Below, piece after piece: positions 8,993-43,783 of a stretch of DNA of 64,000 nucleotides. The notes beneath the pieces were generated by a model that saw only the letters and a program-made list of their open reading frames with translations, did no database searches and was not told the DNA's origin. The stretch is taken from sequence record NC_027395.1. The stretch is one strand, 5' to 3'. A program made the translations under genes and the position numbers. Source of the DNA: Escherichia phage vB_EcoP_SU10. How positions within the stretch are numbered: position 1 is the first letter of the stretch; every line of letters starts with the position of its first letter.

Positions 8993-9001
8993 TAATGTAT
9001 A
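8993..9001 (+). promoter_or_regulatory. TAATGTATA promoter-like element
   Basis: Exact 9-mer 33 nt upstream of ATG 9035; same 9-mer recurs upstream of other genes. Confidence 0.5.
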
Positions 9002-9034
9002 TTCTTTGTCTACATATAACAAGGAGGACAACCT

Positions 9035-9787
9035 ATGGCAATGCCAGATGTTCAATACCCCATCAATACCTATGGGTGGCTAAAGAAGGCCGTGGCCCTC
9101 TGGGCAGATAGGGACGACGATGAATTTGTTAATCAAATTCCAAACTTTATTAACTTTGCAGAGAAAGAGATTTATCGTAACTTACGTATTCCTCCTCTGG
9201 AAAAAGAAGTGTATTTAGATATTAAAGATGGAGTAGCTTACATTCCTCCTGATTACTTAGAAGCTCAATGGATGATGAGAGCCAAAGATGGCACAATCTT
9301 CCAAGTAACCTCTCCTGAAGAGATTAGCTATCGTAGACAGCATGGAACAATTAACCCATCTCACTGGAATAACCAACCTGTCAACTTTGCTCGTTTCGGT
9401 AGTCGTTTCATTTTCTACCCTAGCATCGAAGCAGATACTCCGTACTACCCTGATGATGGAAGCCCTTTGATTCCAGCAGAAAACTCAGTGATTCTTAGCT
9501 ATTATGCAGACCCACCGGAATTCCATGAAGATACAGATACTAGTACTATTCTTACTATAGCACCAGAACTTCTTCTGTACTTCACCCTACGTCATGCTTG
9601 TCTCTTTGTTCAAGATGATAATGGTGTTCAGAAATGGTCAGCATTAGGAAAAGCTATCCTTGATGAAATGGTAGAACAGAATAAGAAACAAGAGTACTCA
9701 GGTTCACCTATCGCAATTCCGAATAACATGACTCGACTTCAGAGCAGCTTGCCTGATATTTATGGTATTCGTACTTCTCGTGTATAA
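9035..9787 (+). CDS. Hypothetical virion protein (250 aa)
   Basis: First gene after capsid terminator and promoter-like element; GGAGGA RBS. Confidence 0.6.
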   Translation: MAMPDVQYPINTYGWLKKAVALWADRDDDEFVNQIPNFINFAEKEIYRNLRIPPLEKEVYLDIKDGVAYIPPDYLEAQWMMRAKDGTIFQVTSPEEISYRRQHGTINPSHWNNQPVNFARFGSRFIFYPSIEADTPYYPDDGSPLIPAENSVILSYYADPPEFHEDTDTSTILTIAPELLLYFTLRHACLFVQDDNGVQKWSALGKAILDEMVEQNKKQEYSGSPIAIPNNMTRLQSSLPDIYGIRTSRV

Positions 9788-36174: not shown

Positions 36175-36233
36175 ATTTTAATTTCCTTATTTAATTTGAA
36201 AGATTGTTGCTCTCTTTGAGCGGTTATGTATAG

Positions 36234-36242
36234 TATACATTA
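36234..36242 (-). promoter_or_regulatory. TAATGTATA promoter-like element (minus strand) upstream of SSB gene
   Basis: Exact 9-mer on minus strand about 59 nt upstream of ATG 36174. Confidence 0.5.
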
Positions 36243-36305
36243 CGCTTATACCGATAAGAGTACTATATAATATAAGTATCTTTGGTAGTAGATATAACAC
36301 ACTAG

Positions 36306-36314
36306 TAATGTATA
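36306..36314 (+). promoter_or_regulatory. TAATGTATA element on + strand inside minus-strand intergenic region
   Basis: Exact 9-mer; no + strand ORF downstream. Confidence 0.4.
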
Positions 36315-36411
36315 TATTGTATAGCTGATAAAGTTATTGCAGGCTTGTATATTGGGCAATTCACAGAATCCCTTGCAAGTACCGAAGGGCAGGAGACACC
36401 TGCGAGATAAA

Positions 36412-36475
36412 AATAGAGAATTAAGGAATCCTTGATTTAGGTTGTAGGGACTCCTAGGGACTTTGATTCTCTATT
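36412..36475. repeat. Inverted repeat enclosing tandem TAGGGACT direct repeats
   Basis: AATAGAGAAT (36412-36421) pairs with ATTCTCTATT (36466-36475); TAGGGACT at 36445 and 36455. Confidence 0.5.
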
Positions 36476-41760: not shown

Positions 41761-42045
41761 TCAACCTCTTGGGAATGGCATCAAAAATTCCACAGCAGAT
41801 TTAATTTCATTATTGATTCTTGAATCACGATAAGAGATAAACTTACCTTTGCTATCACGTAACATCACATTAGTTCTGGCTGTTTTGTGAGGGAGTAATG
41901 TGACACTAGTTGGAATAGCATCAACCCCTACAGCGTATTTGTCAATAGTCTTACTTTCAGCCAACAGATAAGACCAAGTACGCGGTTTCTGCTCCGGGCG
42001 GTTAGGGTATGTGTCCCGAATCTGAACCATAGCTAACTTATTCAT
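41761..42045 (-). CDS. Small protein, tandem paralog A (94 aa)
   Basis: Shares TARTNV.LR..GKFISY...AVE.L.PFP.G with the adjacent gene. Confidence 0.5.
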   Translation of the reverse strand: MNKLAMVQIRDTYPNRPEQKPRTWSYLLAESKTIDKYAVGVDAIPTSVTLLPHKTARTNVMLRDSKGKFISYRDSRINNEIKSAVEFLMPFPRG

Positions 42046-42046
42046 A

Positions 42047-42301
42047 TTAAACTCCTTTAGGGAATGGGATGAGATTTTCTACTGCAACACGGAAAGATTT
42101 TTCTACGTTCTTATTCTTATAAGAGATAAATTTTCCATCAGCTCCTCGAAGGAGTACGTTAGTGCGAGCTGTATTTGGGGTTTGTTGAATCATAGAACGA
42201 ATGATGTTCTCTGAACCTCTATGCTTATTGGTGAATTTCCAACTGATAGTTTTACCGGTACGAGATACATCAATAATATTTACAATTTTTACAATAGACA
42301 T
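42047..42301 (-). CDS. Small protein, tandem paralog B (84 aa)
   Basis: See paralog A. Confidence 0.5.
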   Translation of the reverse strand: MSIVKIVNIIDVSRTGKTISWKFTNKHRGSENIIRSMIQQTPNTARTNVLLRGADGKFISYKNKNVEKSFRVAVENLIPFPKGV

Positions 42302-42342
42302 ATTTATTACCTAAGAAATTTAATTTGGTTTATATAAAAGAA

Positions 42343-42366
42343 AAGGCCACCTGATTAGGCAGCCTT
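42343..42366 (-). terminator. Candidate terminator (minus strand)
   Basis: Imperfect hairpin AAGGC..CCT/AGG..GCCTT followed on minus strand by TTCTTTTAT. Confidence 0.4.
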
Positions 42367-42370
42367 TGTT

Positions 42371-42664
42371 CTAGAGACGAAGCCAAGTTTGATAGTCAGC
42401 TTCAGTGTAATGGTTGTTTCGAGAGTTGTTTTTCATTTCCTTGAGAGTAGCTCTCAGGTCAATGTTATGCTCTCTCCTTGTTCTATTCGGGTCTGTATCT
42501 TCTAATAGATGTGAGTGATCACTACAAGAGTAGTGCTTATAGTGGTCCCTGTATCCTCTACTTGGAGAATACTTGGTCATTAAAGTTGCAACTCTTTTTA
42601 CACCCTCTGCTTTACAGAATTTACAATAAGTGTGAATTGTACATCTTTTTGTTTCTGCTGACAC
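42371..42664 (-). CDS. Cys/His-rich small protein (97 aa), possible zinc-binding
   Basis: CTIHTYCKFC and HYKHYSCSDHSH clusters. Confidence 0.5.
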   Translation of the reverse strand: MSAETKRCTIHTYCKFCKAEGVKRVATLMTKYSPSRGYRDHYKHYSCSDHSHLLEDTDPNRTRREHNIDLRATLKEMKNNSRNNHYTEADYQTWLRL

Positions 42665-42674
42665 TATAACCTCT

Positions 42675-42989
42675 TTATGAGCTTAAAGCTCCTTTGCGTG
42701 CTCCAGCTGCTTTTCCAGCTCGATCACCACTTTTGCCGCCGTTTGAACGGTTTGAGCTGACTGATTCAACACGTAAGTTGCTTGACGCATTAGAGCCTCC
42801 AGACTTGACAGCTCGTTTGTGTCCAACGTCTTTACCTCTGACAGCAGCTTTTCCATCGCGCTTTTCAACGATGCGACGTGCACGGTGGCGCTGAGCATCT
42901 CCGCTCTTGCTCCCAACGCCTGTCTCACCACGGGCAATTGCGGTACGTCTTTCTTGTGCATAATCTCTCTTTCCTACATGATCTGCCAT
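42675..42989 (-). CDS. Basic G/S/K/R-rich low-complexity protein (104 aa); alternative overlapping frame exists
   Basis: AGGAG RBS 6 nt upstream of ATG and TAATGTATA element 37 nt upstream; overlaps a 92-aa coiled-coil ORF (42683-42961) in another frame. Confidence 0.45.
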   Translation of the reverse strand: MADHVGKRDYAQERRTAIARGETGVGSKSGDAQRHRARRIVEKRDGKAAVRGKDVGHKRAVKSGGSNASSNLRVESVSSNRSNGGKSGDRAGKAAGARKGALSS

Positions 42990-43025
42990 TTAAAACTCCT
43001 TAATATATCAGTGTACACTAAGGAG

Positions 43026-43034
43026 TATACATTA
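43026..43034 (-). promoter_or_regulatory. TAATGTATA promoter-like element (minus strand)
   Basis: Exact 9-mer 37 nt upstream of ATG 42989; inverted repeat TCCTTA...TAAGGA in the leader. Confidence 0.5.
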
Positions 43035-43045
43035 TAAGTTACTGT

Positions 43046-43783
43046 TTAAGCTTTCTTTTCCATTGCTTTAACAATCGCCTTACAGAAACCAGAACGAACA
43101 ATGTCATCCGATTCTCCGTCTACAATCTCAGCGAACTCATACAGATCATGTTCATCAATAAAGTTAGTAGCCCAAGTAAGACCACTCTCACGACCACGCA
43201 TATCATGCTGGTTTGTATCACCCATACAGAACAATTGAGAGGTTTCTCCCAATCGAGTCATGATGGAGAAGGCTTCATCCTTAGTTGTGTTCTGGAACTC
43301 ATCTACGATAACAATGGCATCATTGAAAGAGCGACCACGGAGATATTCCAGAGGTACAAATTCAATGTTACCATTTCCGATTTGGCATTCATAGAATCCC
43401 TTACCATATCGCTGAGTAATAACATCAATGATAGGCATCAGGTAAGGTTCAAACTTCTCACGCATTCCTCCCGGAAGTAACCCAAGAGAGTTTCCCATGC
43501 CAACCGAAGGGCGACTCAGAATGATCTTCTGAATCTTACCACTTTTCAGTGCATCGATAACCGTGGAAGTGATTACAAAGGTCTTACCACAGCCCGCAGG
43601 AGCGTCTGTGAACACAACTTGTTTAGTCTTAATAGCATTGAGTAGCTCAGACTGAAACTGGTTCTGAGGGACTACAGGCTTTGCTAAAACCACCTCTTCA
43701 TACTCTCGCTTACCCTTACGAGTAACAAGTGCTTCCCGACGAAGGTCTTTCCGTGATTCTTTCCGTGATTGACGACGACTCAT
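43046..43783 (-). CDS. phoH: PhoH-like ATPase
   Basis: Walker A VFTDAPAGCGKT; typical PhoH length and layout. Confidence 0.85.
   Translation of the reverse strand: MSRRQSRKESRKDLRREALVTRKGKREYEEVVLAKPVVPQNQFQSELLNAIKTKQVVFTDAPAGCGKTFVITSTVIDALKSGKIQKIILSRPSVGMGNSLGLLPGGMREKFEPYLMPIIDVITQRYGKGFYECQIGNGNIEFVPLEYLRGRSFNDAIVIVDEFQNTTKDEAFSIMTRLGETSQLFCMGDTNQHDMRGRESGLTWATNFIDEHDLYEFAEIVDGESDDIVRSGFCKAIVKAMEKKA

Follow-up and report, generated by a model that had tools for sequence, protein, structure and literature searches.

Two overlapping reading frames in a phiEco32-like coliphage very probably contain one gene, for a predicted zinc-less HNH-type protein

A single protein-coding gene very probably accounts for the two overlapping reading frames at this locus of a phiEco32-like coliphage. 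This gene is the 104-aa ORF on the minus strand, which is served by the gp36 promoter P58 and would encode a zinc-less protein of the HNH type. The stretch of DNA that was analyzed (the window, 64,000 nucleotides) does contain both of the long ORFs that a preliminary description had placed here, at 42675-42989 (104 aa) and 42683-42961 (92 aa), and the second lies on the same strand in the +1 frame relative to the first. That description left it ambiguous which frame is translated, a question that is now settled for the 104-aa frame alone by its family match, substitution pattern, codon usage and published proteomics. The two same-strand ORFs and the expression cassette ahead of the longer one stand as first described, but the portrayal of the product as a low-complexity, KGG-like protein does not. 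The observation is ordinary and already known, and the dual frame establishes nothing new. The two frames are:

42675-42989, minus strand: coding sequence of 104 aa (10.83 kDa, pI 11.5), assigned from phrog_4590, homologues, codon usage and mass spectrometry
42683-42961, minus strand: 92-aa ORF in the +1 frame, most likely a compositional by-product, judged from the lack of a family match, recoding nulls and divergence

The locus was correctly noted as relatively GC-rich (0.51-0.53, versus about 0.38-0.43 in the flanks). Codon positions 1 and 2 have elevated GC (0.63 and 0.58, versus 0.54 and 0.40), whereas position 3 does not (0.32 versus 0.36), so the GC-rich stretch reflects the amino-acid composition of the protein. 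A foreign origin for this stretch was considered and rejected because GC at codon position 3 is not raised.

The 104-aa protein has exactly the sequence of SU10 gp056 (a 122-member cluster), and from sequence comparison its gene is the orthologue of phiEco32 gene 58. The phiEco32 gp58 protein is 100% identical over the aligned part, and phiEco32 gene 58 and SU10 gp056 share with the window gene both a TAATGTATA-hairpin-AAGGAG cassette and a location between the PhoH and DNA polymerase genes. One difference is that phiEco32 has an additional small gene (59) between PhoH and gene 58, whereas the window resembles SU10 in having PhoH immediately upstream and a further 97-aa gene downstream. The profile of phrog_4590 matches the protein over its full length (E = 7.4e-41), and 200 homologues from several phage families are found at E <= 1e-3. 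A tblastn search with the main frame recovers 245 phage records with 50-100% identity, which come from Escherichia, Pseudomonas, Aeromonas, Salmonella, Cronobacter, Proteus and Vibrio phages.

Codon usage and substitution patterns, both of which had been proposed as checks, agree on this frame. The main frame has a codon-usage score of +0.60 and the 92-aa frame has a score of -0.14, where real genes score 0.52 +/- 0.19 and +1 readings score -0.66 +/- 0.18. Changes relative to related phages pile up at main-frame third positions (for example, 9/4/26 and 12/9/30 by codon position). The suggested proteomics check is answered by published mass spectrometry of SU10, in which CDS56 (10.8 kDa), the identical gp056 protein, was detected by 2 peptides with 18.3% coverage (PMC4281155). 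By prediction, the main product should weigh 10.83 kDa and the 92-aa product 10.14 kDa. Of the two, the SU10 list includes the main product alone, which also argues against translation of the second frame.

The 92-aa ORF is most likely not a gene, but rather a by-product of the composition of the main protein. Stops in the +1 frame need a preceding Leu, Ile, Val or Met codon, and this frame stays open because such codons are few in a protein that is rich in Gly, Ala, Arg, Ser and Lys. Leu, Ile, Val and Met together make up 12.4% of the 104-aa protein versus 21.6% in long genes, and there are 1.9 +1 stops per 100 codons in the gene versus 5.1 in long genes. When the synonymous codons of the gene are permuted, 23% of trials give a +1 open stretch that equals or exceeds the actual one in length (P = 0.23). 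Sampling codons from genome-wide usage gives an equally long +1 open stretch in 8.9% of trials (P = 0.089) and predicts 2.6 +1 stops in the gene, compared with the 2 that occur. The open stretch in the window is consequently no longer than its composition would lead one to expect. Across 55 homologues, the open-frame P-values range from 0.03 to 1.0.

True dual coding, in which the 92-aa ORF is an overprinted gene for a helical protein translated beside the 104-aa protein, is a reading to which we give almost no credence. In its favor, every member of the Gordonclarkvirinae that was examined, along with several Pseudomonas phages, keeps the +1 ORF open (92-97 aa), and the frame is open more generally in many homologues with a GC content of at least 0.48, including Pseudomonas phages. 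The +1 frame has even been annotated in PaP3 (orf38), Ka1 ('putative membrane protein') and phiEc_1, and its codon-usage score of -0.14 falls at the top end of what +1 frames score. However, 3-7 stops close the frame in homologues from Aeromonas, Salmonella, Cronobacter and Proteus phages and from ECO319P1, and the +1 products that can be translated differ in character, being helical and polar in Escherichia phages and hydrophobic in Pseudomonas phages. Purifying selection is not evident in the second frame, as third-position changes are plentiful in the 5' and 3' parts of the gene. Outside of one 69-nt stretch, the +1 translation varies freely, with 64-72% identity where the main protein has 85-93%, and 11-36% where the main protein has 49-70%. 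A family search of the 92-aa translation against Pfam and phrogs returns no match. The ORF has only 2 near-identical clusters among 5.8 billion, and no homologue is found beyond near-identical kuravirus loci.

The nested Rz/Rz1 spanin genes of lambda offer a useful comparison, since there too one ORF is located wholly within another on the same strand in the +1 frame. Unlike that pair, the 92-aa frame lacks purifying selection, independent homologues and a conserved start. These phages also have an embedded o-spanin gene of their own that is consistently annotated, in contrast to the 92-aa frame.

One argument for a second coding function is a block of unusual conservation inside the overlap:

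42840-42908, minus strand: 69-nt near-invariant stretch (codons 28-50), defined by nucleotide identity across Gordonclarkvirinae

Identity of at least 99% is reached by this stretch in 91 of 97 records, but by the 69-nt segments on either side in 22 of 97 and 19 of 95 records. Across three genera (7 sequences) it has zero synonymous changes, the pattern expected of an overlapping function. Nevertheless, distant homologues (L019-L021) do not conserve its nucleotides, which is a further point against dual coding. Relationships between phages differ depending on whether the 5' or the 3' part of the gene is compared. The stretch behaves like an intragenic recombination junction, and recombination explains its invariance better than selection on a second frame does. 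There is no signal of RNA structure within the 69 nt (z = -0.04).

Analysis of the protein family predicts that the 104-aa product is a small, very basic, zinc-less member of the HNH superfamily:

42732-42842, minus strand: HNH-like (beta-beta-alpha-metal) core, residues ~50-86, with G56-H57, N67, N71 and N80, and Ser at the canonical Cys positions

All 34 of the diverse family members that were compared keep three residues that would correspond to the catalytic His (H57), the structural Asn (N71) and a metal ligand of the helix (N80). In the structure model, strands at residues 53-57 and 72-76 are followed by a helix at 77-82, which is the strand-strand-helix order of this fold. Model confidence is low in the C-terminal 20-25 residues and in part of the N-terminal region. 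The N-terminal segment RGETG..S.D..RHRARR is conserved and helical.

Database searches are mixed, and the matches to HNH models come mostly from the relatives of the protein. Among the 34 family members, 27 match PF01844 (best E = 5e-4) and 11 match PF13392 (best E = 7.5e-5), and all of these matches are weak, below or near threshold. The family profile reaches two proteins, P0209 (E = 7e-8) and P0237 (E = 9e-7), that are both above the Pfam gathering scores for HNH/HNH_3. Thus, relatives of the family exceed the thresholds of PF01844/PF13392 and the window protein itself is below them, with no HNH match and no other match at E <= 1 when searched against Pfam. One relative has a faint match to the IscB HNH entry in NCBIfam (E = 0.004), and the window protein has no match there. 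A Foldseek search finds HNH nucleases in 22 of 22 PDB matches, with non-significant E-values of 3-9. The family profile finds 0 sequences at E <= 10 among all PDB chains. A low-power hhalign comparison between the family alignment and two HNH proteins annotated in related phages aligned the Asp-His motif alone, with a non-significant score.

The best structural matches to the 104-aa protein are small HNH endonucleases such as the Gme HNH nicking enzyme (4H9D), the phage GVE2 enzyme (5H0O) and the McrA nuclease domain (6GHC). It resembles them in its length of about 100 residues, its strand-strand-helix order, and its catalytic His and two Asn at canonical spacing. It differs in that it has no Cys4 zinc site, with Ser at two of the Cys positions, and in that its family has its own highly conserved N-terminal RGETG...RHRARR segment. 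Its gene is also situated in a replication/nucleotide-metabolism module and not beside terminase.

These similarities bear on the proposal that the product is a disordered basic polypeptide, resembling KGG-type stress proteins or histones and lacking an enzyme fold, which we now regard as highly improbable. Its composition is indeed dominated by small and basic residues, as first noted (G16, A15, R15, S13 and K10; pI 11.5), and the low model confidence near both ends and the absence of a Pfam match for the window protein are compatible with disorder. However, the family has 26 invariant columns across its 34 diverse members, including the spaced H...N...N pattern, which does not fit the low-complexity label, and both the sequence and structure matches are to HNH proteins. 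KGG-repeat stress proteins (PF10685; YciG, GsiB type) are similarly small, hydrophilic and rich in Gly and Lys. Unlike them, the window product is a member of a phage family that is conserved and carries a nuclease motif, and the KGG-type repeats attributed to it do not exist, as there are neither tandem nor direct repeats and no Pfam KGG match at E <= 1.

The product would bind DNA and nick or cut it. The position before the catalytic His complicates this prediction. In HNH enzymes of the Asp-His type, the Asp at this position has an established role in binding metal (D839 in Cas9 and D74 in I-HmuI, for example). Residue 56 is Asp in at least 90% of the family and Gly in the window protein, a departure from Asp-His HNH enzymes that is common to the Gordonclarkvirinae sequences examined (the window, P0003, L003-L006, L014 and L015). 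Nuclease activity is uncertain because Gly replaces this metal-binding Asp, and the product may only bind. A tentative alternative, which is possible although not our favored view, is that the HNH fold was kept and catalysis was lost with the change of Asp56 to Gly, leaving a sequence- or structure-specific DNA-binding factor for replication, recombination or packaging. The conservation of Asp56 in the rest of the family, its role in the known enzymes and the very high positive charge of the protein are all consistent with such a factor. Against it, the catalytic His and both Asn residues are still invariant, and the nearby Asp54 could stand in for the missing ligand. An unrelated member (P0174) likewise has Gly-His, which suggests that the Asp-to-Gly change is tolerated.

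A more specific role can be imagined for a catalytically active product. The gp58 family is found in Kuravirus-like, 7-11-like, Aeromonas, Vibrio, Bruynoghevirus and tf-like Pseudomonas phages, and it might be the site-specific nickase that produces localized single-strand nicks in virion DNA from tf-/LUZ24-like Pseudomonas phages, with an equivalent activity in phiEco32-like phages. We consider this assignment unlikely. The closest solved folds do include HNH nicking enzymes, but the co-occurrence of gene and nicks is confounded by phylogeny. The tf nick motif TACTRTGMC is not enriched in the window (2 occurrences versus 2.25 expected), and a scan for enriched 8-10-mers finds codon-driven words only and no strand-specific over-represented k-mer. 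The papers on these nicks do not name a nickase, and within the terms searched an HNH gene is not mentioned in them either (PMC3517423, PMC11780129).

A compact set of expression signals precedes the 104-aa gene:

43026-43034, minus strand: TAATGTATA, single-element promoter for the phage sigma factor gp36 on host RNA polymerase, counterpart of phiEco32 P58
43019, minus strand: probable transcription start of the P58 transcript (+1 = A) with a 30-nt leader, placed from the phiEco32 literature
42995-43026, minus strand: leader inverted repeat forming a 13-bp hairpin whose 3' arm includes the Shine-Dalgarno sequence
42996-43001, minus strand: Shine-Dalgarno AAGGAG, 6 nt before the ATG, seen in the sequence and conserved in relatives

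The TAATGTATA element is present upstream of the ORF as reported, with its last base 37 nt from the A of the ATG. It is an exact match to the consensus tAATGTAtA of phiEco32-type middle/late promoters, in front of a gene-58 orthologue, and gene 58 is one of six phiEco32 genes that are downstream of experimentally found gp36 promoters (PMC8948821, PMC4331800). The window contains 5 exact copies of TAATGTATA versus 0.49 expected, a number that was reached in 0 of 100 shuffles. The entire cassette of TAATGTATA, hairpin and AAGGAG is conserved in phiEco32, Paul, WFI101126, TH43, ECBP2 and KBNP1711, irrespective of the upstream gene. The center of the AATGTA element is at -11.5 (PMC12276001), and transcription in phiEco32 starts 6-8 nt downstream of the element (PMC8948821). 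In mid-infection, gp36, aided by gp79, would bring host RNA polymerase to TAATGTATA at 43026-43034.

The arms of the inverted repeat (42995-43007 and 43014-43026) are 13 nt long and 85% complementary around a 6-nt loop, and the ribosome-binding site given earlier as AGGAG is contained in the AAGGAG sequence. The hairpin has a free energy of about -14.7 kcal/mol and is kept in relatives. Most of its 5' arm (CUCCUU, 43020-43025) lies upstream of the predicted transcription start. In a read-through RNA, the hairpin is present in both the minimum-energy and centroid folds (z = -2.29), whereas an RNA that begins at 43020 has a weak fold (-3.4 kcal/mol, z = +1.1) in which the Shine-Dalgarno sequence is free. 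If transcription starts at ~43019, then the 30-nt leader would expose AAGGAG, and the hairpin would mask the ribosome-binding site only in transcripts that read through from the upstream gene. Translation would in this case depend on the gene's own promoter, a logic that rests on the start site taken from the phiEco32 literature. A role for the leader hairpin as a terminator was rejected, because relatives do not preserve the U-run that follows the stem and a terminator scan makes no call there. No relevant Rfam family is found in 42300-43200; one faint match to a Phe leader (E = 0.12) occurs outside of this region.

Two features downstream of the 104-aa gene suggest the extent of its transcript:

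42371-42664, minus strand: 97-aa Cys/His-rich gene, SU10 CDS55-like (phrog_9585, E = 5.5e-46)
42342-42367, minus strand: hairpin followed by a T-run, resembling an intrinsic terminator (11 pairs, 5 of them G-C, and a T-rich tail in a consensus scan)

The 97-aa gene begins 10 nt past the stop codon of the 104-aa gene and is probably co-transcribed from P58. Its 11.59-kDa product agrees with SU10 CDS55 (11.6 kDa), which has been detected by mass spectrometry (PMC4281155). The hairpin probably ends the P58 transcription unit, and a terminator is annotated at the corresponding place in WFI101126. The P58 transcript would then span the 104-aa and 97-aa genes, up to the terminator at ~42342-42367.

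This locus is a clear case of a protein rich in Gly, Ala, Arg and Ser that leaves its +1 frame open, and it has misled annotators. The annotations of PaP3 orf38, the Ka1 'putative membrane protein' and phiEc_1 BEH83364.1 are calls in the +1 frame that should probably be removed, and about 100 'hypothetical protein' entries could take an HNH-family name. Three leads emerge for the biology of these phages: an uncharacterized family of small HNH proteins that is widely conserved in phage replication modules, a 69-nt intragenic recombination junction that is ultra-conserved, and an anti-Shine-Dalgarno sequence embedded in a promoter that could couple translation to the gene's own promoter.

The window comes from an E. 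coli podophage of the phiEco32 type (Gordonclarkvirinae), and many Kuravirus records match an 801-nt query around the locus at 99-100% identity. Around the locus, genes are encoded on the minus strand, with the following features:

42371-42664, minus strand: 97-aa Cys/His-rich gene (SU10 CDS55-like; phrog_9585), directly downstream of the 104-aa ORF
42675-42989, minus strand: 104-aa ORF, the gene 58 orthologue
42683-42961, minus strand: 92-aa ORF, shifted by +1 relative to the 104-aa ORF
42840-42908, minus strand: 69-nt stretch (codons 28-50 of the 104-aa gene) without synonymous variation
42995-43007 and 43014-43026, minus strand: leader inverted repeat with 13-nt arms and a 6-nt loop

Both overlapping ORFs are present in the ORF listing, and the stretch is relatively GC-rich as first described (local GC 0.51-0.53 versus approximately 0.38-0.43 in the flanks). 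The preliminary description left undecided which ORF is translated, or whether both are. This ambiguity is resolved in favor of the 104-aa frame by family membership, substitution pattern, codon usage and proteomics, and the case for the 92-aa frame does not stand. The 104-aa product matches phrog_4590 over its whole length (E = 7.4e-41), and the 92-aa product has no match in the same family searches (Pfam, phrog). By tblastn, 245 phage records contain the 104-aa frame, among them Pseudomonas (Bruynoghevirus), Aeromonas, Salmonella, Cronobacter and Proteus phages at 50-67% identity. Its product has 200 homologues (E ≤ 1e-3) in a large protein database; the 92-aa product retrieves two near-identical clusters only, with five sequences in total, among 5.8 billion.

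Of the checks proposed at the outset, substitution pattern, codon usage and proteomics point the same way. Substitutions relative to other phages fall mostly on third positions of the main frame, equivalent to second positions of the +1 frame (for example, 1/0/8, 9/4/26 and 12/9/30 differences at codon positions 1/2/3 in close relatives), and the +1 translation diverges faster. Main-protein identity is 85-99% in close relatives and 49-70% in distant homologues, with +1-translation identities of 64-98% and 11-36%, respectively. Codon usage favors the 104-aa frame, which scores +0.60 (real genes in frame, 0.52 +/- 0.19) versus -0.14 for the 92-aa ORF (+1 readings of real genes, -0.66 +/- 0.18). 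The 104-aa product has the same sequence as SU10 gp056 (AIF71809.1); it falls in a 122-member cluster and occurs on 65 contigs. Published mass spectrometry of SU10 recovered 2 peptides of it, covering 18.3% of the sequence, and lists it as CDS56, a hypothetical protein of 10.8 kDa (PMC4281155, Table 2). Its neighbors CDS57 (PhoH, 27.6 kDa) and CDS55 (11.6 kDa) were likewise found in SU10 (PMC4281155). Masses predicted from the window are 10.83 kDa (104-aa), 27.63 kDa (PhoH) and 11.59 kDa (97-aa), and that of the alternative product is 10.14 kDa. The gene, promoter and protein product of the 104-aa ORF are already on record.

The 92-aa ORF is a compositional by-product. Stops arise in the +1 frame only where a main-frame codon has TA or TG as its last two bases, and the amino acids so encoded are restricted to Leu, Ile, Val and Met. 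These residues make up 12.4% of the 104-aa gene and 21.6% of the long genes of the window, with 1.9 and 5.1 +1 stops per 100 codons, respectively. GC content at codon positions 1/2/3 is 0.63/0.58/0.32 in this gene and 0.54/0.40/0.36 in the long genes; since it is elevated at the first two positions and not at the third, amino-acid composition accounts for the GC-rich stretch. When the gene was recoded with its protein sequence fixed and the +1 open stretch was scored, permuting its own synonymous codons left at least 96 codons open in 23% of trials. Drawing codons from genome-wide usage gave an equally long opening in 8.9% of trials, with 2.6 +1 stops expected versus 2 observed. Among 55 homologous loci, most with GC of at least 0.48 have an open +1 frame (per-locus P-values from 0.03 to 1.0), and 3-7 stops close it in the Aeromonas, Salmonella, Cronobacter, Proteus and ECO319P1 homologues. 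Public records include the +1 frame of this family as PaP3 orf38 ("ORF.38"; locus L009, 414-683), as phiEc_1 BEH83364.1 ("hypothetical protein") and in the Ka1 record, where both frames are annotated ("NHN endonuclease Cas9-like protein" and, for the +1 frame at L060 314-583, "putative membrane protein"). These +1 entries are probably mis-annotations arising from the same compositional effect.

Codons 28-50 have zero synonymous changes in seq­uences from three genera (seven sequences in all), and flanking codons vary freely. Among 97 Gordonclarkvirinae records, 91 have this 69-nt stretch at 99% identity or above; for the neighboring segments of equal length within the gene, the figures are 22 of 97 and 19 of 95. 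Against 40 kb of SU7 (78% identity overall), it is the only perfect 69-nt block with flanks at or below 83%. The 77-nt perfect run that includes it ranks ninth in the SU7 comparison, and a 47-nt run ranks fourth once KBNP1711 is added, so its conservation is marked but not unique. Dual coding gains no support from it, because the +1 translation is unconstrained outside the stretch, and because homologues L019-L021, which are more distant, do show synonymous variation inside it. No signal of RNA structure was detected within it. SU7 and Paul are alike in the 5' part (0.95) and not the 3' part (0.84), whereas SU7 and TH43 (0.99 versus 0.75), like the window and Paul (0.99 versus 0.77), are alike in the 3' part and not the 5' part. 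These discordant relationships imply crossovers at or near the stretch, which from such comparisons looks like a mosaic or recombination junction; the identity may be either cause or result of the recombination.

The signals described in front of the 104-aa ORF (ribosome-binding site, TAATGTATA at 37 nt upstream, inverted repeat) are all present, and the minus strand reads TAATGTATA-CTCCTTAGTGTACACTGATATATTAAGGAG-TTTTAA-ATG. In the literature, TAATGTATA is a single-element promoter used by RNA polymerase with the phiEco32 sigma factor gp36; experiments located six of these promoters, preceding genes 6, 13, 26, 40, 58 and 68 (PMC8948821, PMC4331800). The window contains five exact copies (0.49 expected). 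The promoter-leader cassette is near-identical in phiEco32, Paul, WFI101126, TH43, ECBP2 and KBNP1711 despite differing upstream genes. Similar elements cluster on both strands at 36224-36323 (36234 minus, 36306 plus, near-copies at 36224 and 36315), which is probably a divergent middle/late promoter region; beside it, 36370-36445 is the longest run (76 nt) perfectly conserved in both SU7 and KBNP1711.

Because AATGTA is centered at -11.5 relative to the start (PMC12276001), transcription from this promoter should begin at about 43019. In the leader, CUCCUUAGUGUA can pair with UAUAUUAAGGAG as a 13-bp hairpin (about -14.7 kcal/mol), thereby burying the Shine-Dalgarno sequence. The CUCCUU arm lies upstream of the predicted +1. 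When the RNA starts at 43020, folding is weak (-3.4 kcal/mol, z = +1.1), and the read-through RNA has the hairpin in its minimum-energy and centroid folds (z = -2.29). Transcripts from the gene's own promoter would then be favored for translation. At two of the five TAATGTATA promoters, a stem comes immediately after the element, at 42995-43026 (minus; CTCCTTA...TAAGGAG) and 8993-9035 (plus; TTCTTTGT...ACAAGGAG); its 5' arm, located at or upstream of the predicted start, is anti-Shine-Dalgarno in sequence. At both, the ribosome-binding site would be masked in read-through transcripts and free in promoter-initiated ones. The transcription unit probably includes the 97-aa gene and probably ends at a terminator-like hairpin (42342-42367), where the WFI101126 record annotates a terminator. 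Farther on, the adjacent 94-aa (41761-42045, minus) and 84-aa (42047-42301, minus) genes both match phrog_6814 (E = 1.6e-36 and 3.1e-38) and are a tandem paralogue pair with no assigned function.

The 104-aa product was described as low-complexity with KGG-like repeats, but it has neither tandem or direct repeats nor a KGG Pfam match. An alignment of 34 diverse family members (A1) has 26 invariant columns and the consensus ...RDYxQERxTAIARGETGVGSKSGDAxRHRARRxVEK...VDHKKxxKxGGSNxxSNLRVRSxSxNxSDGGK..., the second half of which is, as judged from sequence, an HNH motif with His57 ending a strand, Asn71 and Asn80. Ser takes the place of the Cys pair known from canonical HNH proteins. Pfam HNH is matched by 27 of the 34 members (best 5e-4) and HNH_3 by 11 (best 7.5e-5); the window protein is below every Pfam threshold. 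An AlphaFold2 model (pLDDT 69) places strands at 53-57 and 72-76 and then a helix at 77-82, and all 22 Foldseek matches in the PDB are HNH nucleases, though at E-values of 3-9. A PDB sequence search with the family profile gave no hits, and hhalign of the family against single proteins was negative. A profile search of 1.8 billion representatives found 338 relatives, mostly of 80-110 aa, including P0209 (E = 7e-8; EIDHIKPLAEGGSNDPSNW) and P0237 (E = 9e-7), both of which score above the Pfam gathering cutoffs of HNH and HNH_3. Some family members already carry HNH or McrA labels in databases.

The Asp before the catalytic His is a metal ligand in Asp-His type HNH enzymes (Cas9, I-HmuI). At least 90% of the family has Asp here, and the window protein (42822-42824, minus) and the other Gordonclarkvirinae sequences examined have Gly56, which may mean that metal binding is lost or altered. 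Because Gly56 replaces this ligand, catalysis in this subfamily is in question, and nuclease activity there is conceivable but somewhat doubtful. An unrelated member, P0174, likewise has Gly-His.

The gene-58 family is invariably located in the module for replication and nucleotide metabolism, here between PhoH and DNA polymerase and in Bruynogheviruses next to the polymerase exonuclease subunit. The 97-aa phrog_9585 protein is unlikely to be an obligatory partner, since its gene occurs in some kuraviruses only. The tf- and LUZ24-like phages, which have localized nicks at TACTRTGMC (PMC3517423, PMC11780129), also contain the family, making it a candidate for the nickase. The nickase goes unnamed in these papers, and within the terms searched no HNH gene comes up in them (PMC3517423, PMC11780129). 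In the window, TACTRTGMC is not enriched and no strand-specific over-represented word stands out. We consider it very improbable that this family produces those nicks. Its likeliest function is to bind DNA and to nick or cleave it in the course of replication or recombination. The family profile also matches a few large proteins at their C termini, and one protein among the matches has 4-6 tandem HNH_3 repeats (together P0218, 786 aa; P0253, 450 aa; P0257, 958 aa; P0263, 573 aa; and P0237, 414 aa). The domain thus occurs in some cases as part of a larger architecture, and such fusions could hint at its function.
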